From Candidatus Aenigmatarchaeota archaeon (GTDB taxonomy: Archaea; Aenigmatarchaeota; Aenigmatarchaeia; Aenigmatarchaeales; JACQIB01), in the NCBI GenBank assembly GCA_016198755.1, contig JACQIB010000001.1:64001-128000 (forward strand): 64,000 nt of DNA, read 5' to 3'. The notes under the pieces were generated by a model that saw only the letters and a list, made by a program, of their open reading frames with translations, did not search any database and had not been told where the DNA came from. Both the position numbers and the translations under genes were made by a program. Positions 6,762 to 57,066 of the stretch are shown here, piece after piece; position 1 is the stretch's first letter, and every line of letters starts with the position of its first letter.

Positions 6762-7070
6762 TGTGTGTTGGGGTTAGCCCGCCTTTTGTTCGCCTGCCCG
6801 GTTTCCCGGGCGCGCGGCGCGGCAGCATTTGTCTAAGCAGCCTACCCGCTGCTCTTTATTCATTGCAGCCTACTTGGCCTTGCACCTTGCTGGTTTTGCG
6901 TTCCAGAGACATACTTCACATTTGTTCATCAGGTCCCTTTTTGCGCTTCCTGTCAGTCTCCCAACAGCCTTTTACAAGGCAGCATTTTTCTGGTGGGCGG
7001 AGCTTCCTCCCCGCTAGCCTCCCCCCGAAAGGATCAGCTGAGCAGGGGCAACTGCCTCCCCAACTCACAC
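6762..7070 (-). ncRNA. rnpB: RNase P RNA
   Basis: Minus strand GAGGAAGCTCCGCCC ... ACAAAAGGCGGGCT (P4), terminal helix GTGTGAGTTGGGG/CCCCAACACAC, GC-rich, followed by oligo-T. Confidence 0.9.
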
Positions 7071-32088: not shown

Positions 32089-32198
32089 GCCTGAGTGGCT
32101 CAGCCTAGTTAGAGCGCCAGACTCATATCATTATGAGTTTCGAGCGAAAGCTGTGAGATATCTGGAGGTCGTGAGTGCGAATCTCACCTCAGGCACCA
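32089..32198 (+). tRNA. tRNA-Met(CAT), elongator type, intron at 37/38 (32128-32159)
   Basis: GCCTGAG/CTCAGGC plus ACCA; CCAGA/TCTGG; central helix CTCA/TGAG. Confidence 0.85.
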
Positions 32199-34084: not shown

Positions 34085-34161
34085 GCCTCGGTGGCTCAGC
34101 TCGGTAGAGCGGCGCACTTGTAATGCGCAAGTCGGGGGTTCAAATCCCTCCCGAGGCTCCA
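34085..34161 (+). tRNA. tRNA-Thr(TGT), intronless
   Basis: Full cloverleaf, GCGCA-CTTGTAA-TGCGC, TCCA end. Confidence 0.93.
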
Positions 34162-37594: not shown

Positions 37595-37717
37595 GCGCCG
37601 ATAGTCTAGTGGTAGGACCTCAGCCTTCCAAGCAGAAACCTCAGTGAGTTTCTGCACATCCGGCAATCCCGGTGTAGAAAGCTGATGACCAGGGTTCAAA
37701 TCCCTGTCGGCGCACCA
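37595..37717 (+). tRNA. tRNA-Gly(TCC) with intron at 37/38 (37631-37679)
   Basis: GCGCCGA/TCGGCGC plus ACCA; TCAGC/GCTGA; intron forms two hairpins. Confidence 0.85.
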
Positions 37718-42040: not shown

Positions 42041-43393
42041 ATGTTCAGTTTCCTAAAAAAGAAGCTAAAGGAGGGTGTTGAGAAACTCTCTTCTGCCCTA
42101 TCTAGCAAGCCTGATGCAGAGGAAAAGCCTGCAGAACCTATACCAGTTCCTTTAGAACACTCCGTTTTACAGGAGCCTTTCCCAGAGCCAGAAAAGGAAG
42201 AAGTTTCAGTTTCTCCAGAACATCTGAAAACAGTTGATGAAAAGAAAGAAGAAGCAGTTCCCGTACCTTTGCAAGAAGAAAGAAAACCTGCAGAGGCTGT
42301 TGAAGAACTAAAAGAAAAAGAAGAGGGCCCTGTTCCTACAATTCCAGAAGAAACTCCCCTCCCAGAGAAACCCGAGGAAGAACTTCCAAAACCTGTTAAA
42401 CCTATAGAGGAAAAGACAGAACCGGAAATACTGAAAAAAGAAATTAAACTAGAAAAGAAAATCCTGCGCGAGGAAAAGAAAATAGAAACAGAGCTGCAAA
42501 GTGGAAAAGAGAAAAAAACAGGTTTTCTTGAGAAGCTGAAAAAGGCAGTAAAGGAAAAGGAGATAGAAGAGCAGGATATTACGCCTATATTAATAGAGCT
42601 GGAGACAGACCTGCTGGAAAGTGATGTTGCTTTAGAGGTTACGGAAAAGATTGTTTCCAGCCTGAAAAAAGACCTTTTAGGCAAAAGCATAAAGCGCTCC
42701 GAGGATTTAGAAGCTCTGATAAAGAAAAGCCTAAAGAAAAGCATTCTGGAAGTTCTTTCTGTCCCGTCAATCAGCATAGAACAATTGGCAAAGCAAAAGA
42801 AACCTCTAAAGATAGTGTTTTTGGGCTTTAACGGTGCTGGGAAAACCACATCCATTGCAAGGCTGGCTCACTACCTGAAAAACAAAGGCTTTTCCACAAT
42901 ACTGGCTGCAGCAGACACATGGAGAGCAGCCAGTATAGAACAGTTAGAGGAACATGCTGCGCGGCTTGAAGTTCCAATTGTTAAGCACAAATACCAGTCA
43001 GACCCTGCAGCAGTTATTTTCGATACAATTAAAGCAGCAGAAAGCAGGGGAATAGACATTGTGCTTGCAGATACAGCTGGCCGCTCTCAAGCAAACACAA
43101 ACCTTATGGACGAACTGAAGAAAATAATCCGTGTAAACAAGCCGGATTTGAAGATTTTGGTTATAGATGCTCTCACAGGAAACGATTCTGTGGAACAGGC
43201 AAAGCTTTTCAATGAGGCAGTTGGAGTTGATGGAATTATAGTTACAAAGGCAGATGTGTACGAGAAAGGCGGGGCTTTGCTCTCAGCAGTCCACTCAATA
43301 AAGAAACCAATCCTGTTTATAGGCGTTGGCCAAGAGTACGGAGACTTTAAGCCCTTTGTTGCTGAAGAAGTTGTGGAAAGCCTTCTTTCATAA
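42041..43393 (+). CDS. ftsY: SRP receptor FtsY
   Basis: GFNGAGKTT, DTAGR, TKAD; acidic N-terminal region. Confidence 0.95.
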   Translation: MFSFLKKKLKEGVEKLSSALSSKPDAEEKPAEPIPVPLEHSVLQEPFPEPEKEEVSVSPEHLKTVDEKKEEAVPVPLQEERKPAEAVEELKEKEEGPVPTIPEETPLPEKPEEELPKPVKPIEEKTEPEILKKEIKLEKKILREEKKIETELQSGKEKKTGFLEKLKKAVKEKEIEEQDITPILIELETDLLESDVALEVTEKIVSSLKKDLLGKSIKRSEDLEALIKKSLKKSILEVLSVPSISIEQLAKQKKPLKIVFLGFNGAGKTTSIARLAHYLKNKGFSTILAAADTWRAASIEQLEEHAARLEVPIVKHKYQSDPAAVIFDTIKAAESRGIDIVLADTAGRSQANTNLMDELKKIIRVNKPDLKILVIDALTGNDSVEQAKLFNEAVGVDGIIVTKADVYEKGGALLSAVHSIKKPILFIGVGQEYGDFKPFVAEEVVESLLS

Positions 43394-43425
43394 TTGTTTT
43401 TATTCTCCCTCACCCAACAACCCCT

Positions 43426-43971
43426 ATGAAAAAGCCCTATTCAATTATTGTAGGCAGATTCCAGCCTTTTCATTTAGGCCATTTGCAGGCTGTTCTATTA
43501 GCTAGTAAAAAGTACAGGAAAGTGGGTATAGGAATTTTCCATCCTTCCTTTGGAAAGCCAAATAAAACCAAAGTTTTCATGCCTCATGCTTTTGACAAGG
43601 AATGTAATCCATTCCCCTATTCTTTAGTAAAGAAAATAGTTTTCGCAGCTCTAAAGGAAGCAAAAATCCACAATTTTGTGCTGTTCAAGTTTTACCCTAC
43701 AATGGTCTATCCATTCTCAAAATTCAAGCAAAACCTGCCATTTCCCTTAAAGAACTCAGAGTTTTTTATAGCCAAAAAGGGGGGCTCAAACAAAGTTATG
43801 AAAAGAATACTGGAAGCAGGTGGAACCTACAGAACCCACAGTATTTTTAAAACAGGCTCCCGCACGATAAACGGTACAGAAATCCGCAGGCTTTATTTCT
43901 CCAATAATAAAAAGTGGGAAAAGCAGGTTCCGCCAGCAGTAAGGAAAATATTGCTTAACTGGAGAAAATAA
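43426..43971 (+). CDS. cytidylyltransferase/NMN adenylyltransferase-like protein
   Basis: GRFQPFHLGH, NPF, GTEIR, W...VP. Confidence 0.8.
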   Translation: MKKPYSIIVGRFQPFHLGHLQAVLLASKKYRKVGIGIFHPSFGKPNKTKVFMPHAFDKECNPFPYSLVKKIVFAALKEAKIHNFVLFKFYPTMVYPFSKFKQNLPFPLKNSEFFIAKKGGSNKVMKRILEAGGTYRTHSIFKTGSRTINGTEIRRLYFSNNKKWEKQVPPAVRKILLNWRK

Positions 43972-43974
43972 CTA

Positions 43975-44976
43975 CTATTTACCCAAAATCCCTTTATAGA
44001 ACTTTATTGTTTCTCTCAGTCCATCTTCCAGCTTAACTTTTGGACTATATCCCAATGTCTTTGCCTTTGTAAGATCAGGCTTCCTTCTGAGCGGATCATC
44101 CTTTGGCAGTTCCTTAAAAACAATATTTGATTCAGTTCCGGTCAATTCCGTTACAATATTCGCAAGCTCCAGAACACTCATTTCATTATCATTCCCAACA
44201 TTCACTATCATCCCTTTTGTTCCTTCTCTGAACAATAGCAAAAGCATGCCTGCAACAGTATCTGTAACATAGCAGAAAGATCGTGTTTGTTTTCCTGTTC
44301 CATAAACAGTTAAAGGCTCCCCAACGAGAGCTTGGCATACAAAGTTTGGAACAACCCTTCCATACTGCCCATATCTTTTCATTTTTGGACCATAAGTATT
44401 GAAAATTCTTACGATTCTCCCATCCACCTTCCTATTTTGAATAAACGCCCTTACCAAAACCTCCCCAACTCTCTTAGACTCATCATAGCAAGCTCTCGGC
44501 CCAAGAACACTCACATTCCCATTATACTCCTCCTTCAGCGGAAGTGCCTCAGCAGGAGGGTTCCCATAAACCTCACTCGTGCTTGCAAACAGGAACTTCG
44601 CACCCGTTTTTTCTGCTAATTCCAGCATATTTCTGGTTCCCAGAATGTTAGCATCCATTATCTCTATAGGGTGTTCTATGAAAGCAGTAGGATCAGCCAT
44701 GCTTGCTAAATGTAAAATAAAATCAAACTTCCCTTCAGGCTTTGAGTTTTCTGCTCTTTCATTCAAAACCTCAACCCTGCTGTCCTTAGAAATGTTATCT
44801 ACATTTCCTGTTGAAAGATTATCTATAACAACTATTCTTCCAGCCCCCATTTTTAGCAAACAATCAACCAAATGTGAGCCTATAAACCCAGCTCCTCCAG
44901 TAACGAGGAACATTCTTCCTTTTACTTCTCCCAAAAATGGTTCAAGCTCTTTCGGAACATTTTCAAAGCTAATCAT
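43975..44976 (-). CDS. UDP-glucuronate decarboxylase-like SDR
   Basis: GGAGFIG, STSEVYG, RACYDESKR, DDP.RR.PD. Confidence 0.9.
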   Translation of the reverse strand: MISFENVPKELEPFLGEVKGRMFLVTGGAGFIGSHLVDCLLKMGAGRIVVIDNLSTGNVDNISKDSRVEVLNERAENSKPEGKFDFILHLASMADPTAFIEHPIEIMDANILGTRNMLELAEKTGAKFLFASTSEVYGNPPAEALPLKEEYNGNVSVLGPRACYDESKRVGEVLVRAFIQNRKVDGRIVRIFNTYGPKMKRYGQYGRVVPNFVCQALVGEPLTVYGTGKQTRSFCYVTDTVAGMLLLLFREGTKGMIVNVGNDNEMSVLELANIVTELTGTESNIVFKELPKDDPLRRKPDLTKAKTLGYSPKVKLEDGLRETIKFYKGILGK

Positions 44977-45059
44977 ACCTAAACTAAAGAAAGCAAGCTT
45001 TTAAAGCATTTCGGAACCGCATAGCAGCCCTTATAAACCCTTGCTTACTAATTCTCAGA

Positions 45060-46385
45060 ATGCTAGAAAAACTTGGAAAGGGGCTGCGCTCAGCCTTGGA
45101 TAAGGTTACAAAAGCAGGCTATGTTGATTCTGCTGTTATTGAAAGCTTGGCAGAGGAGATAAGGAAAACCCTTATATCAGGTGATGTGGATGTTGCTTTG
45201 GCTGGTAAATTAGCTGAGGCAATAAAACAACGGGCTGGAAAAGAAAAGCCGCCTGCAGGGCTTTCAGCGCGCGAGCATGTTATAAGGATTGTTTATGAGG
45301 AACTTGTAAAGTTTGTTGGAAAAAAGCCTGATATAAATTTGAAACCAAGAAAACTGCTGGTTGTGGGATTGTTCGGATCCGGAAAAACCACCTCACTTGG
45401 AAAATTAGCAAAGTTCTATCAAAAGAAGGGACTAAAAGTTGGACTAATCGGCTGTGATGTGCACAGGCCAGCTGCAATGGATCAGATACAGCAGGTTGCA
45501 AAGCAGTGTGCAGTTCCTGTCTATGCCCCGAAAGGACAGAAAGATCCGTTGGCTATAGTAAAAACAGGTATAGAACAGTTAAGCCCGCGTGCAGATTTGC
45601 TTTTATTTGACAGTTCAGGGCGTTCTTCTCTTGATAAAGAACTGGCTGAAGAATTAAAAACCCTTGCAAAAGATATTGAGCCTGATGAAGTTCTTTTGGT
45701 TATACCAGCAGACTTGGGGCAGGCAGCTAGGGAACAGGCTGAAGGCTTTTCTAAACTGGTAGGTATAACAGGGGTGTTTATAACAAAAATGGATGGAACA
45801 GCAAAGGCAGGAGGAGCATTAACAGCCTGCTCTGTTTCCGGAGCTCCTGTAAAGTTTATTGGTATAGGGGAAAAGCTGGAAGCTATAGAGGTTTTCGATC
45901 CTGAAAACTTTGTTTCACGTTTGTTGGGTTTTCCAGATCTGAAAACTTTGCTGGAAAAGGCAAAAGAAGCAATACCGCAGGAAAAGGCAAAAGAACTTAC
46001 AGAAAGATTAATGGAAGGGAAATTCACCCTTGATGATTTTTATGAGCAGATTAAGGCTGTTGGAAAGATGGGGGGTCTTGGAGATATGCTTGGTTCAGCT
46101 ATGCCTGTACCTAAAGGAGTTGATTTGGACCAGCAGGAGAAAAAAATGAAAAAATGGGGATTTGCAATCCAGTCTATGACAAAAAAAGAAAGGGCAGAAC
46201 CCAATCTATTGAACGAAAGCAGGATAAGGAGGATTAGCAAAGGTTCAGGTATATCAGAGTCGCAGATAAAAGAAATGTTAAAGGCTTATGATCAGGCGCG
46301 CAAAGTCTCTAAATTAATCTCAGCAGGTGGGATGAAAAGGGGAATGCTTGCACAGATTGCAAAAAGGTTTAAGGGGATTGCGTGA
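45060..46385 (+). CDS. srp54: signal recognition particle protein SRP54
   Basis: GSGKTT, DVHRPAA, TKMDGTAKAGG, IQSMT..ER, SRIRRI. Confidence 0.96.
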   Translation: MLEKLGKGLRSALDKVTKAGYVDSAVIESLAEEIRKTLISGDVDVALAGKLAEAIKQRAGKEKPPAGLSAREHVIRIVYEELVKFVGKKPDINLKPRKLLVVGLFGSGKTTSLGKLAKFYQKKGLKVGLIGCDVHRPAAMDQIQQVAKQCAVPVYAPKGQKDPLAIVKTGIEQLSPRADLLLFDSSGRSSLDKELAEELKTLAKDIEPDEVLLVIPADLGQAAREQAEGFSKLVGITGVFITKMDGTAKAGGALTACSVSGAPVKFIGIGEKLEAIEVFDPENFVSRLLGFPDLKTLLEKAKEAIPQEKAKELTERLMEGKFTLDDFYEQIKAVGKMGGLGDMLGSAMPVPKGVDLDQQEKKMKKWGFAIQSMTKKERAEPNLLNESRIRRISKGSGISESQIKEMLKAYDQARKVSKLISAGGMKRGMLAQIAKRFKGIA

Positions 46386-53370: not shown

Positions 53371-53572
53371 TTCAGCGAGAAAAATGAAATCACCCACAAA
53401 AATACGGCATTATAGAATCAGGCCGCGCAGAAAGGCATAGAGACCATATGGGTTTATAAAGGCTGCTTTCCCAGTATAGGGAAGTGAGGTAGAGAGTAGT
53501 TTTGATTTCTATATGAGTTTCAAATATAACATACTTCTCGAATGAGAAAATTTAAAATAGGGGGTGAAAATA

Positions 53573-53719
53573 ATGCCATTCAATCGCGACTTTGGTCCAA
53601 GGGAAATGCACAAAGCAGTTTGTTCAGAGTGCAAGAAGGATACTGAGGTTCCTTTCAAGCCATCTGGTGACAGACCTGTTTATTGCAAGGATTGTTTCCA
53701 GAAGCACAAGAAATTCTAA
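53573..53719 (+). CDS. CxxC-x17-CxxC small zinc-finger protein
   Basis: Hand-translated PREMHKAVCSEC..EVPFKP..DRPVYCKDC; GGGGGTGA RBS. Confidence 0.85.
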   Translation: MPFNRDFGPREMHKAVCSECKKDTEVPFKPSGDRPVYCKDCFQKHKKF

Positions 53720-53756
53720 TTCCACATCAGGAGTTTGAATTTAACAATCCATTTTC

Positions 53757-54815
53757 ATGGGCTTTAGTTTTTATATGCCCAGCCAATTAATTAATATTAA
53801 GCAAAGTAATCATATTATTATGATTAACATTGATTTTTTGCCAGATTCACCCAAAATACCCTTCAAAAATTACCTTGAAGATATACAGATAAAAAGAAAG
53901 CGTGGGAGTGATTCTATAAGATTTTATAATGTAAGAGATTATTTTTTAAATCTTATAAATAAGAGCGGAATAAAAAGAAGAAAAATATACGAAATGCTAG
54001 ATGTAAATAGGACTACATTCAATAATTGGATAGGTAAATCTAAAAAAGATGTCGGCATACCTATACAATATGCTCTAACATTGCTACAAATGTTTGGTAT
54101 GGGAAAGGATGATATATTATTTAAAAATGTTAATATTTACTACGGTTGTACAAATTCTAATAAATATAAATTGCCAACGGATATGACGCCTAAGCTAGCC
54201 TATCTAATAGGACAAATAATGGGTGACGGCCACTTATCAAATCCAAAAGATCTTATATCAAACGGATCTTTATATAATGCAGAGATAAGAATTACGAAGG
54301 GTGAAATAAAACAACTCAGATTGTTGACATCTATATTTTATGATATTTTTCATTATAAACCACCTATTTTCAGGGAAAAATCGTTTTATAGACTTGTAGC
54401 GCGATCAAAAGTTATTCACAGATTTTTGCATATCGTATGCGCCATACCAAGCGGTAATAAGAAAAACAAAACCTATATACCAGATATGATAATTAAAAAA
54501 GATGATTTTATAAAATGTTTTATTGGAGGATTTTTTGATTCTGATGGTTGCATAGTAGTTAAAAATAAAAATATTCGTGTGATTTCAATGAAACAGCATA
54601 ATATAAAAATCCTTCTCGATATCAAACATCAGCTTAAAAAATTTGGTATAAATATATCTGGCATATACAAAGATAGAGGAGTAAGAAACGGAACATCTAC
54701 ACTAAATTATGTTCTCAACATAGGTAGAGATGAAGAAAAACAAAAGTTTATAAAGATCATACCGTCTCTAAAGGTTATGGAGGTGTCGCGATTATATGGA
54801 AAATTTAGCATCTAA
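53757..54815 (+). CDS. free-standing two-motif LAGLIDADG homing endonuclease with N-terminal HTH-like segment (start may be 53820)
   Basis: LAYLIGQIMGDG and FIGGFFDSDG; no intein splicing termini; visibly AT-rich. Confidence 0.85.
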   Translation: MGFSFYMPSQLINIKQSNHIIMINIDFLPDSPKIPFKNYLEDIQIKRKRGSDSIRFYNVRDYFLNLINKSGIKRRKIYEMLDVNRTTFNNWIGKSKKDVGIPIQYALTLLQMFGMGKDDILFKNVNIYYGCTNSNKYKLPTDMTPKLAYLIGQIMGDGHLSNPKDLISNGSLYNAEIRITKGEIKQLRLLTSIFYDIFHYKPPIFREKSFYRLVARSKVIHRFLHIVCAIPSGNKKNKTYIPDMIIKKDDFIKCFIGGFFDSDGCIVVKNKNIRVISMKQHNIKILLDIKHQLKKFGINISGIYKDRGVRNGTSTLNYVLNIGRDEEKQKFIKIIPSLKVMEVSRLYGKFSI

Positions 54816-55507
54816 AGGTATACACATAGCTATCATCCCGGACGGAAAATAAGGCCGGAAACCGGAGATGGGCTGAGAAAAGGGGGAAGCCCCGCTGGTG
54901 GGGCCATATACATGGGGCAAAGAAGCTGGAAGATGTATCTTCATGGTGTGCAGATCACCCTGAAATAAAAACAGTTTCAGTTTATGCGCTTTCAACTGAA
55001 AATCTTGGCAGGGACTCCGCAGAATTGAATAAGCTTTGGACAATCTATAAAGATGAGTTTGGAAAACTGATGAAAGATAAAAGTACAAAGAAAAACCAGC
55101 TTCGGGTAAATATAGTAGGAAACACAAATGCATGGAGAGCTGATGTAAAACAGGCTGCAAAGGATGTAATGAACACAACAAAGCAGTATACTAACAGGGT
55201 TTTAAACATAATGCTTGCCTATGGCAGCAAGTTCGAGATTGTAGAGGCAGCCCGTTCAACCTTTAATAAAGGGGTTAAAATAGTGCCTTCCGTGGAAAAG
55301 CTTTTCAATCAATTCCTTTTGATTCCAGAGCCAGTTGATTTGGTTATAAGAACAGGAGGGCAGAGAAGGCTTTCCAACTTTTTGCTATGGCAGGCTGCTT
55401 ATGCAGAACTTTACTTTACAGATACTCTCTGGCCAGATTTATCAAGGAAAGAGTTTGAAAAAATCCTGCGCTGGTATACTGGCCAGAAGAAAAAGTTCGG
55501 CCTCTAA
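54796..55507 (+). CDS. uppS: undecaprenyl/polyprenyl diphosphate synthase interrupted by a 13-nt putative intron
   Basis: HIAIIPDG^NRRWA, YALSTEN, YGSK.E, DLVIRTGG.RRLSNFLLWQ..YAEL.F...WPD; GGAGGTG RBS. Confidence 0.85.
54848..54860 (+). other. putative 13-nt BHB-type mRNA intron
   Basis: AATAAGGCCGGAA; removal restores frame and the DGN motif; relaxed BHB fold. Confidence 0.65.
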
Positions 55508-57066
55508 ATTCCTCTCAGTTTCTCTGCAATTTTATCTTTTCCTAATGCAAGTATAAGTGTTGAGAGCTTTGGTCCGGCTTCCTTTCCTGTTATTGACATG
55601 TAAGCTGAGCGGAAAAACTCCCTCGGGTTTCCGCTTTCTTTAGAAAGCTCAAAAATCCTGTTTTGTAATTTTTCTTCAGTCCAGTCTTTCCCAAGTTCTG
55701 AGGCAAGCTTCTGTAGAAAAGCTTTTTGGTTCTCAGGAACAGAAGCAACTTCAACCTCCCCACCCGTATCTTTAATCCATTCTATAACCCTTCCAATTCT
55801 CTCTTCCAGAACTTTTTTATTTCCTCCTATATGTCCGGTTTTTTCCATTTCTTTCCAGACAACCGAAAACTCTGGAACAGGTCTCGCAATATTTATTATA
55901 GTGCTGTATTGTACAATAGGCTGGAATTTTTTCGGGGGTTTTAGGAAGTGGATAAATTCAAACAGCCTGCGTGCATGGGCTAAATCAGTTTTGTTTTCAA
56001 TTAATTTTTTCCCAAAATATATGCCTGCAAGCTCGTCTACCTCTTCCTCATAAGCAGGTATAGCATCCAGATCTATTACCCTGCTCTTTCCAAGTTTTTT
56101 CAGATAAACAAGCTTCATACTCTCTGGGCTTGCATACTTTAACCATAGCTGTGGTGTGAAAACATTTCCGGAACTCTTTGAAATCTTCTCTCCTCCCCTC
56201 TCAGTAAATAATTCATAGAAAGAATGTACTGGAGGTTCCCACTGCAAAATTTCCTTGCAAATAGCATCATTTACTCTTACAGAATCTGATATATCCTTCC
56301 CATAAGCCTCATAATTTATTTTCAGAGCCCTCCAGCGTGCTGCAAAATCCACTTTCCATGCCAGCTTCCCTTCCCTTATCCCTTCAGTTCCCTCAAATCC
56401 ACACCCCTTTACTAAAATCTTTTTTCCTGTTCCGGAATTTTTACCTTCATATTCAACATCACACTTGTAAGTTACTTTTTTACCATCAAATGAAACTGCG
56501 CGCGTTGTGCAGACATTTCCGCATTGCGAACAGATAGGAAGGAATGGCAATTGTAACTCAAACTTTTCCTGTCCGGTTAATTTTTTTATTATTTCCCCCG
56601 CCATTTTCCAGTTTTTAAGTATATCCACAATTTCTTTATCCAAAGTTCCTTTAGCGTACTCTTTATCAGCACTGCGGAAAACAAAATCAATTCCAAGTTT
56701 TTCATAAGCATCCATTAACAGCGAGCTCATATGCTCAGCATAGCTTTTATGGCAGCCAAATGGATCCGGTATATGTGAAACAGGTATTCCAATTTCTTTC
56801 TCGAGTATATCAGGGAAGCCCGAAGGTACTTTTCTCAATCCATCCCTGTCATCTGAAAAAGCAATGAATTCAGACTTTGCACCCCTTTCCTTAAGTGCCA
56901 AGTGTACAACAAAACTTCTGACACCATCCCCAACAGAGCCTATATGCGGAATGCCAGAGGCTCCTATACCCATCTCTGTTCTGTAAGACTTTACTCTCTT
57001 TAACTTCTCTTCCTTCTCAATTATTTCTTCTGCAGCTTTATCAGCCCAAAATATGTTATCTCCCAT
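55504..57066 (-). CDS. lysS: lysyl-tRNA synthetase, class I
   Basis: FWAD, ASGIPHIG, DDRDGLRKVP, GKLAWKVDF..RW, KISKSSGN. Confidence 0.95.
   Translation of the reverse strand: MGDNIFWADKAAEEIIEKEEKLKRVKSYRTEMGIGASGIPHIGSVGDGVRSFVVHLALKERGAKSEFIAFSDDRDGLRKVPSGFPDILEKEIGIPVSHIPDPFGCHKSYAEHMSSLLMDAYEKLGIDFVFRSADKEYAKGTLDKEIVDILKNWKMAGEIIKKLTGQEKFELQLPFLPICSQCGNVCTTRAVSFDGKKVTYKCDVEYEGKNSGTGKKILVKGCGFEGTEGIREGKLAWKVDFAARWRALKINYEAYGKDISDSVRVNDAICKEILQWEPPVHSFYELFTERGGEKISKSSGNVFTPQLWLKYASPESMKLVYLKKLGKSRVIDLDAIPAYEEEVDELAGIYFGKKLIENKTDLAHARRLFEFIHFLKPPKKFQPIVQYSTIINIARPVPEFSVVWKEMEKTGHIGGNKKVLEERIGRVIEWIKDTGGEVEVASVPENQKAFLQKLASELGKDWTEEKLQNRIFELSKESGNPREFFRSAYMSITGKEAGPKLSTLILALGKDKIAEKLRGI

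Follow-up and report, generated by a model that had tools for sequence, protein, structure and literature searches.

A probable 13-nt bulge-helix-bulge micro-intron in the uppS gene of an Aenigmatarchaeota archaeon, with an adjoining LAGLIDADG gene

How can a gene be read whose catalytic motif is interrupted by 13 nucleotides (nt) that carry an in-frame stop codon? This question is raised by uppS, which encodes a predicted cis-prenyltransferase, in a 64,000-nt stretch of DNA (hereafter the window) from Candidatus Aenigmatarchaeota archaeon (GenBank assembly GCA_016198755.1, contig JACQIB010000001.1, positions 64,001 to 128,000 of the forward strand). The genome that holds the window, labelled G000 here (other G numbers denote relative genomes), is that of a small-genome, DPANN-like groundwater archaeon and amounts to 890 kb in 6 contigs, with 89% completeness. 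We consider it likely that nucleotides 54848-54860 of the window are an intron of the bulge-helix-bulge (BHB) type in the mRNA of the sole uppS gene, removed by RNA splicing. Probably it is part of a cassette that also includes the LAGLIDADG gene immediately upstream. That gene, which did not figure in the initial annotation of this DNA, probably alters what the element is.

The frame that opens at ATG 54796 reads MENLASKGIHIAIIPDGK and is closed by a TAA after 18 codons, as sequence and translation both confirm. Exon 1 (54796..54847, + strand) comprises 52 nt, that is, 17 codons and the first base of an Asn codon. Its N-terminus aligns with those of uninterrupted relatives, and the Asp-Gly of the first catalytic motif sits within it. 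The putative 13-nt micro-intron (54848..54860, +) brings in the in-frame TAA (54850-54852) and a +1 shift of the reading frame. Exon 2 (54861..55507, +) completes the Asn codon with two bases and adds 214 codons and the stop.

Read from 54860, the frame of exon 2 (P0001) begins with NRRWAEKRGK and runs for 215 amino acids (aa) to a stop at 55505-55507. It matches PF01255 (E 1.1e-62) from position 5 to position 219 of the 219-position profile, which marks the product as a predicted cis-prenyltransferase; the match spans nearly the whole profile, and the predicted UppS body is thus as intact as the initial annotation had claimed. Removal of 54848-54860, the deletion proposed there, does yield the DGNRRWA motif and 232 uninterrupted codons (696 nt: 52 plus the 644 coding nt of exon 2, 54861-55504). 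The limits of the deletion can be shifted by up to 2-3 nt across the flanking A runs with the product unchanged, and it is the BHB cutting rule, described below, that picks 54848-54860.

An assembly or sequencing artefact is one rival explanation, and the only ground for it is a prior one, the genome being metagenome-assembled. Contigs from 4/4 DNA runs span 54650-55050 (401 bases) with 0 differences, at depths of 61, 61, 37 and 10; these runs belong to one groundwater study and were assembled separately, and the source sample is possibly among them. Because the contigs of the four runs carry the identical sequence, the insert is real DNA. Analogous inserts are also present in fifteen other genomes, and the probability of an artefact is negligible.

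If the insert is real, is it shaped like an intron? An unconstrained minimum free energy (MFE) fold reproduces the structure first proposed for the locus, all of it on the + strand. The outer, exon-exon helix is formed by 54834..54841 and 54862..54870, the latter pairing at 54862-65 and 54867-70 with A54866 unpaired. In the central helix, exon bases 54842..54845 face intron bases 54855..54858 with three pairs and one A.G mismatch, the paired stretch in the MFE fold being 54843-45 with 54855-57. The 5' bulge (54846..54848), with its cut after 54847, is continuous with a 6-nt loop (54849-54854). It runs into this loop because an inner helix is absent, and the motif therefore has the relaxed bulge-helix-loop form. 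The 3' three-base bulge occupies 54859..54861, with its cut after 54860. Cutting after the second bulge base of each strand removes exactly 54848-54860.

The fold energy is -16 kcal/mol (z -1.85), which is only a little out of the ordinary, and 6 of 200 shuffled sequences fold equally well; judged by itself, the motif has weak significance. Among 400,000 random 13-nt spans of the G000 genome, 0.136% match the BHB score of the insert. The canonical form, with two bulges and a 4-bp helix, is seen in relatives (e.g. G005, G026, G063, G023 and G269), and both central-helix 4-mers of G000 recur in G005.

Relatives were the main source of evidence. Searches for the uppS body covered 61 relatives first, all 42 genomes of the order next and finally 371 genomes of the class; the 5' regions were inspected at 50 uppS loci and later in G080, which makes 51 genomes in total. 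A total of 19 inserts of 13-52 nt was found at three sites of uppS, in at least 16 genomes of six families (f1, f3, f15, f16, f24 and f40). The count of 16 is a lower bound, because G080, with an open frame of 238 aa, surfaced only through its endonuclease gene; each class search covered 150 of about 340 matches.

Inserts at site 1a, within the Ile codon that precedes Pro-Asp-Gly (Ile|Pro), measure 29-31 nt and occur in G023, G269, G271 and G272. Site 1b, the site of the window, follows the first base of the Asn codon (Gly|Asn) and holds 13-33 nt in G000, G005, G026, G133, G296, G063, G123, G138, G143, G150 and G080. Site 2 follows the GHxxGA motif and holds 29-52 nt in G140, G138, G143 and G150. 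Inserts are absent in relatives of the same genus (G001 as against G005, G139 as against G138). In all 15 interrupted genomes known before G080, the gene is the sole uppS match and has no further stops; for G000 in particular, a check for a second intact copy found none, the PF01255 match being single in the genome. The comparison with relatives that the initial annotation had suggested thus turned out in its favour: different inserts occur at the same site and at two others, with exact BHB geometry and compensatory pairing.

Does one cutting rule account for all of these inserts? The BHB rule restores frame and motif for 19/19 of them. To rank candidates by structure, every combination of a central helix of four positions with two bulges of three bases each, an outer helix and an inner helix was scored with the reading frame ignored, over 120-nt ranking windows with 777-1252 candidates per locus. 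The structure-only top candidate is the motif-restoring splice at 8 of 13 loci, and at the others this splice ranks 6, 6, 7 (G000), 49 and 250. Two loci come only 6th because the scoring limited the credit for an 11-bp inner helix, and the low places of G123 (rank 49) and G133 (rank 250) are due to breaks in their outer helices. At site 2 the introns lack an outer helix but possess an inner hairpin and a perfect central helix, and the rule still gives the exact junction. Of the 15 introns folded without constraint, 13 have an MFE structure that includes the central helix and the bulge, as judged by eye from the dot-brackets.

The pairing between exon and intron also follows changes in the exon. 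Covariation was counted by hand on few and related sequences, and the count is not equivalent to a formal covariation test. The Asp-Gly codons supply the exon strand of the central helix. An Asp wobble base C is matched by G in the intron, and a wobble base U by A (G026, G138) or G (G063). Two distinct exon 4-mers occur at site 1a, each opposite a complementary intron 4-mer. The inner helix at site 2 is altered on both strands between G140 and G138.

Selection on the gene was estimated between genomes that share an insert. G271 and G272 have an identical 30-nt intron, while their uppS bodies differ at 62% of synonymous and 7% of non-synonymous sites, with a ratio of non-synonymous to synonymous divergence (dN/dS) of 0.06; the ratio is 0.10 for G138/G140 and 0.19 for G138/G150. 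Because these values are low, the interrupted uppS genes are under purifying selection.

Several observations weigh against splicing. Shuffling of the 13-nt insert yields an exact-excision BHB in 453 of 20,000 trials (2.3%), and the G000 motif is the weakest of the set, with the inner helix absent, an A.G mismatch in the central helix and only rank 7 in its own ranking window. The outer helices of G133 and G123 are poor by the scoring used. The relatives are not independent, and the insert frequencies are biased by the choice of loci, because most loci beyond the first 30 were picked for a short frame or a late match start. In 58 of the 371 class genomes, including 11 of 98 of high quality, uppS was not found, and the gene is therefore perhaps dispensable in some lineages. 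Genome-wide scans of G000 for BHB geometry with fusion of open reading frames (ORFs) gave no excess over shifted-partner controls at any score; such scans are uninformative, rather than evidence of absence, because ordinary gene boundaries pass the ORF filter. Lastly, no RNA run is among the sequencing runs listed for the window DNA. The doubt that remains about splicing stems from this and from how minimal the G000 intron is.

Some of these points would also suit a pseudogene, in which the insert is a scar, e.g. of imprecise repair after a cut by the neighbouring endonuclease, and the downstream frame has not yet decayed. Loss of uppS is seemingly tolerable, the G000 motif taken alone is only about 2% unlikely to arise by chance, and an endonuclease gene does adjoin uppS. 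The 16 genomes, however, retain an otherwise intact single-copy gene, the dN/dS values between insert-sharing genomes are those of a gene under constraint, and neither exact BHB geometry nor covariation with the exon is expected of random scars. A pseudogene is therefore an unlikely explanation.

Could the ribosome, instead of the RNA, bridge the insert? Translational recoding might take the form of a +1 frameshift at AAA-TAA, which would insert 4 residues into the motif, or of a ribosomal hop from GGA to GGA, which would give the exact motif; a precedent for hopping is gene 60 of phage T4. The AAA-TAA context is present, as are identical GGA codons at 54844-46 and 54857-59, 13 nt apart, and cbf5 introns were themselves formerly mistaken for frameshifts, according to the passages of a 2009 paper that bear on this (PMC2738675). 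For G000 taken singly, either form of recoding could work in principle. Several of the relatives' inserts, however, are multiples of 3 with 1-3 in-frame stops, and frameshifting is no rescue for these because they are in frame and yet contain stops. The relatives also lack matching take-off and landing codons (sequences inspected by eye), and 4 extra residues would break up a catalytic loop in which 34/34 uninterrupted genes (33 intron-less loci and G270) show no variation. Since BHB splicing alone accounts for all 19 inserts, recoding appears very improbable.

The enzymes that BHB splicing would need are encoded in the genome. Two adjacent genes of G000 on contig C1, for proteins of 178 and 173 aa, belong to the EndA splicing endonuclease family (PF01974). 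The best match of one protein in the PDB is the catalytic subunit of Nanoarchaeum equitans EndA, and those of the other are beta-type subunits; because of these resemblances, the enzyme is predicted to be hetero-oligomeric (two-subunit, alpha/beta-like). This type is reported to accept relaxed motifs, in the parts of a 2018 paper that deal with it (PMC5829648). The ligase RtcB (PF01139) is encoded as well. Its gene, on contig C5 at 42797-45628, is one 1010-aa frame in which the profile matches are split (profile positions 1-50 and 48-426), which suggests an intein of about 480 residues.

BHB introns with geometry like that of uppS are also present in two of the three tRNA genes of the window, one of them with a 3-of-4 central helix as in uppS. 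These are tRNA-Met (CAT) at 32089-32195 (+), with a 32-nt BHB intron, and tRNA-Gly (TCC) at 37595-37714 (+), with a BHB intron of about 49 nt. With default settings ARAGORN reports only tRNA-Thr at 34085 in the window and misses the other two. With its intron option it reports 14 tRNA genes genome-wide, 9 of them with predicted introns, and many tRNA genes of G000 are probably disrupted or undetected.

The insert in the DNA, its fold, the genes for the enzymes, the pattern among relatives and the action of selection are demonstrated, and from them we infer that the transcript is cut and joined in vivo. Independent comparative evidence supports the reading of a spliced gene first given for this locus, every checkable part of which held up. 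In the proposed mechanism, the pre-mRNA would fold such that the flanking exon codons pair as the outer helix, and four exon bases would pair with four intron bases as the central helix, leaving a three-base bulge on each strand. The two-subunit EndA would cut after the second base of each bulge, and RtcB would ligate the exons to give a 232-codon UppS with the catalytic motif DGNRRWA.

If uppS is spliced, where does the intron come from? Directly upstream lies a free-standing LAGLIDADG ORF of 352 aa (53757..54815, +), whose last 20 nt overlap the uppS start. It matches Pfam LAGLIDADG_3 with E 4.9e-12, has two LAGLIDADG motifs and keeps an acidic residue. Residues G152, D157, G158, F255 and G264, with an acidic residue before G264, are invariant in 9/9 aligned LAGLIDADG sequences. 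A sequence search of the PDB with the ORF gave 0 matches; the resemblance to the archaeal homing endonucleases PI-PfuI, I-Tsp061I and I-DmoI, the last two of them intron-encoded, came from a Foldseek search with an AlphaFold 2 (AF2) model (predicted local distance difference test, pLDDT, 69), at target template-modelling (TM) scores of 0.65-0.75. Its nuclease activity is only predicted, because WhiA and a maturase also match the model.

A LAGLIDADG ORF on the same strand adjoins the uppS start in 11 of the 16 intron-bearing genomes (G000, G005, G026, G063, G080, G123, G138, G143, G150, G271 and G272) and at 0 of 33 intron-less loci; five genomes have an intron with no adjacent endonuclease gene. 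Seven of the 11 ORFs exceed the Pfam cut-off, and the rest were assigned by a hidden Markov model (HMM) built from eight ORFs. All 33 intron-less loci were screened with the HMM, and Pfam was also run on 15 upstream ORFs; 24 of these loci had 1.5 kb of upstream sequence, 2 were truncated and 7 had about 300-400 nt.

The uppS-adjacent ORFs form three groups that are only distantly related. Close homologues of group II occur in four class genomes only, each directly upstream of uppS. The fourth of these, G080, proved to have a 20-nt site-1b intron that the open-frame screen had missed, as was predicted from the presence of its endonuclease gene. Of ten close homologues of group III, five are adjacent to uppS, all five beside introns.

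Some of the adjacent genes are disrupted, at least those in G005 (C3:41989-42999, 2 TAA), G150 (C36:1900-3222, 6 stops), G080 (C8:242843-243711, split, 2 TAA) and G271 (C3:3772-4494, 1 TAG in the match). These stops and frameshifts could be decay or additional micro-introns. In G271 and G272 the LAGLIDADG ORF continues in frame across uppS exon 1 and ends at the stop codon of the intron, so that the LAGLIDADG frame would yield one product from unspliced RNA and another from spliced RNA.

The same two genomes exhibit a gradient of divergence along the locus. Synonymous differences amount to 74% in the upstream gene and to 36-45% across the first (5') half of the endonuclease gene; in the 3' part of that gene they fall to 15% and then 0%, the last 64 codons being at 0%. 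Exon 1 has zero synonymous differences and the intron 0/30 differences, and the first 40 codons of exon 2 are at 52%. For this single pair, the pattern resembles that of a recent conversion tract with its centre at the insertion site.

Two further candidates were discarded. The N-terminus of the LAGLIDADG ORF was considered as an old uppS exon 1 and rejected, there being no nucleotide similarity in 53680-53920. An HTH_3 ORF upstream of the interrupted uppS of G023 was not counted as an endonuclease, since it is also upstream of the uninterrupted gene of G034.

Homologues of the window's LAGLIDADG ORF are present in 93 of the 371 class genomes, often in several copies. Those inside open frames of more than 1000 aa are likely inteins, and homing elements appear to be abundant in the lineage.

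One tentative account, plausible from sequence comparison, is that micro-intron and LAGLIDADG gene are a single mobile cassette that spreads by collaborative homing. The free-standing endonuclease would recognise the conserved DNA that encodes the UppS catalytic loop, and the BHB micro-intron would split this recognition site in the carrier genome and so protect it. An intron-less allele would be cut and repaired, with endonuclease gene, exon 1 and intron copied together; later the endonuclease gene would decay and be lost, and then the intron. Such homing would explain why the inserts cluster at the motif (within 6 nt), why three LAGLIDADG lineages sit at the same place, and why no endonuclease gene is found beside an uninterrupted uppS. 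It would likewise explain the intron-only genomes, the decayed copies and the tract in G271/G272. The LAGLIDADG protein may instead be a maturase or a regulator, or its gene may simply hitch-hike.

How does the uppS element compare with known systems? The BHB intron in cbf5 pre-mRNA of Crenarchaeota was reportedly described by Watanabe in 2002 and by Yoshinari in 2006. As the sections drawn on here of Yokobori 2009 (PMC2738675) have it, cbf5 introns show a patchy gain-and-loss distribution linked to hetero-oligomeric EndA, and splicing had at that time been confirmed for no other gene. The putative uppS introns are like these in being of the BHB type and in mRNA, in their patchy distribution, in the hetero-oligomeric EndA and in being liable to annotation as frameshifts. 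They differ in the gene, in the DPANN-like lineage, in occupying three sites, in being as short as 13 nt and in the adjoining homing-endonuclease gene. With the BHB introns of archaeal tRNA and rRNA, some of which have LAGLIDADG endonucleases encoded within them (I-DmoI and I-Tsp061I, by PDB titles), they have in common the motif, the enzymes and, putatively, a LAGLIDADG mobility partner. In uppS, however, the endonuclease is encoded outside the intron, ahead of the host gene; the intron has far too few bases for a coding sequence of its own, and the host is an mRNA.

For collaborative homing, the closest parallel is the free-standing endonuclease F-CphI beside the psbA group I intron, a case that is said to go back to Zeng et al. 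in 2009. According to the portion consulted of a paper on this case in cyanophage S-PM2 (PMC6083498), the endonuclease gene likewise adjoins the intron-bearing gene, and the intron likewise sits at a conserved coding site; there the intron is proposed to shield its carrier from the carrier's own enzyme, which in turn gives the intron mobility. That system consists of a self-splicing group I intron in a phage, with an Endo VII-type enzyme, and has been tested. The proposed uppS cassette, in contrast, would have a protein-spliced BHB intron in a cellular archaeon and a LAGLIDADG-type enzyme, and is known from sequence alone.

A further likeness is with HAC1/XBP1, where an endonuclease and RtcB-type ligation excise a short mRNA segment and the frame changes, as outlined in the relevant parts of two papers (PMC5829648, PMC8718801). 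In that system the nuclease is Ire1, the splicing is regulated by stress and the organisms are eukaryotes, whereas uppS gives no sign of regulation.

In the literature searched, which did not extend to supplements, no description was found of BHB introns in uppS or in any DPANN protein gene, nor of a LAGLIDADG gene adjoining an intron-bearing uppS; neither result is proof of absence. Papers on the splicing endonuclease from 2018 (PMC5829648) and 2025 cite, in the passages concerned, the cbf5 studies alone for pre-mRNA introns. A 2026 preprint on Nanobdellota books 1,214 split or truncated genes in 208 related genomes as assembly frameshifts, with introns mentioned for tRNA alone in the text available from it; its frameshift tables may list these uppS genes. 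The uppS element is best regarded as an archaeal BHB intron whose host gene and lineage are both new, and it is probably linked with a free-standing homing endonuclease.

Confirmed splicing of an archaeal protein-gene intron has so far been on record for crenarchaeal cbf5 alone. With a second host gene, a distant lineage, three sites and 19 independent or diverged copies, EndA-dependent splicing of mRNA would not be a one-off, and the uppS introns would offer a ready-made set of minimal substrates that range in length from 13 to 52 nt. Gene callers will report the interrupted uppS as frameshifted or truncated, and the dolichol-carrier step therefore drops from metabolic reconstructions. Homing, if true, would be the first link of protein-spliced archaeal mRNA introns with free-standing homing endonucleases and would offer a route for the entry of introns into archaeal protein genes. 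With the endonuclease link confirmed, the origin and spread of protein-gene introns, a long-standing question, would become directly testable.

Is uppS one split gene among many? A comparison of G000 with 520 kb of G002, in both directions and with pieces of at least 20 aa, brought up no further protein gene in which an insert of 6-260 nt withstood scrutiny. This screen is blind to short exons such as exon 1 of uppS, and the uppS of G002 is itself uninterrupted. Within these limits, uppS appears to be a preferred host rather than one among many. The candidates discarded in this search were a CopZ/CopA boundary, antisense frames, rRNA-like conserved frames and an insert in a structured non-coding RNA.

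Other features of the window and the genome may be added. A 51-aa zinc-ribbon-like ORF with two CxxC pairs (53564-53719, +) lies upstream of the LAGLIDADG gene. Class I lysyl-tRNA synthetase (LysRS; 55504-57066, -) is convergent with the 3' end of uppS, and the two stop regions share 4 nt; of 52 related loci checked, the window's own excluded, 13 have LysRS next to uppS on its downstream side. The archaeal RNase P RNA is encoded at 6763-7068 (-), with a full-length Rfam match of 112 bits. On contig C5 (forward, about 31.8-32.0 kb), a G+C-rich region resembling a structured RNA is kept in G002 and has about 50-60 extra bases in G000, which may be an intron or a variable helix of a non-coding RNA.

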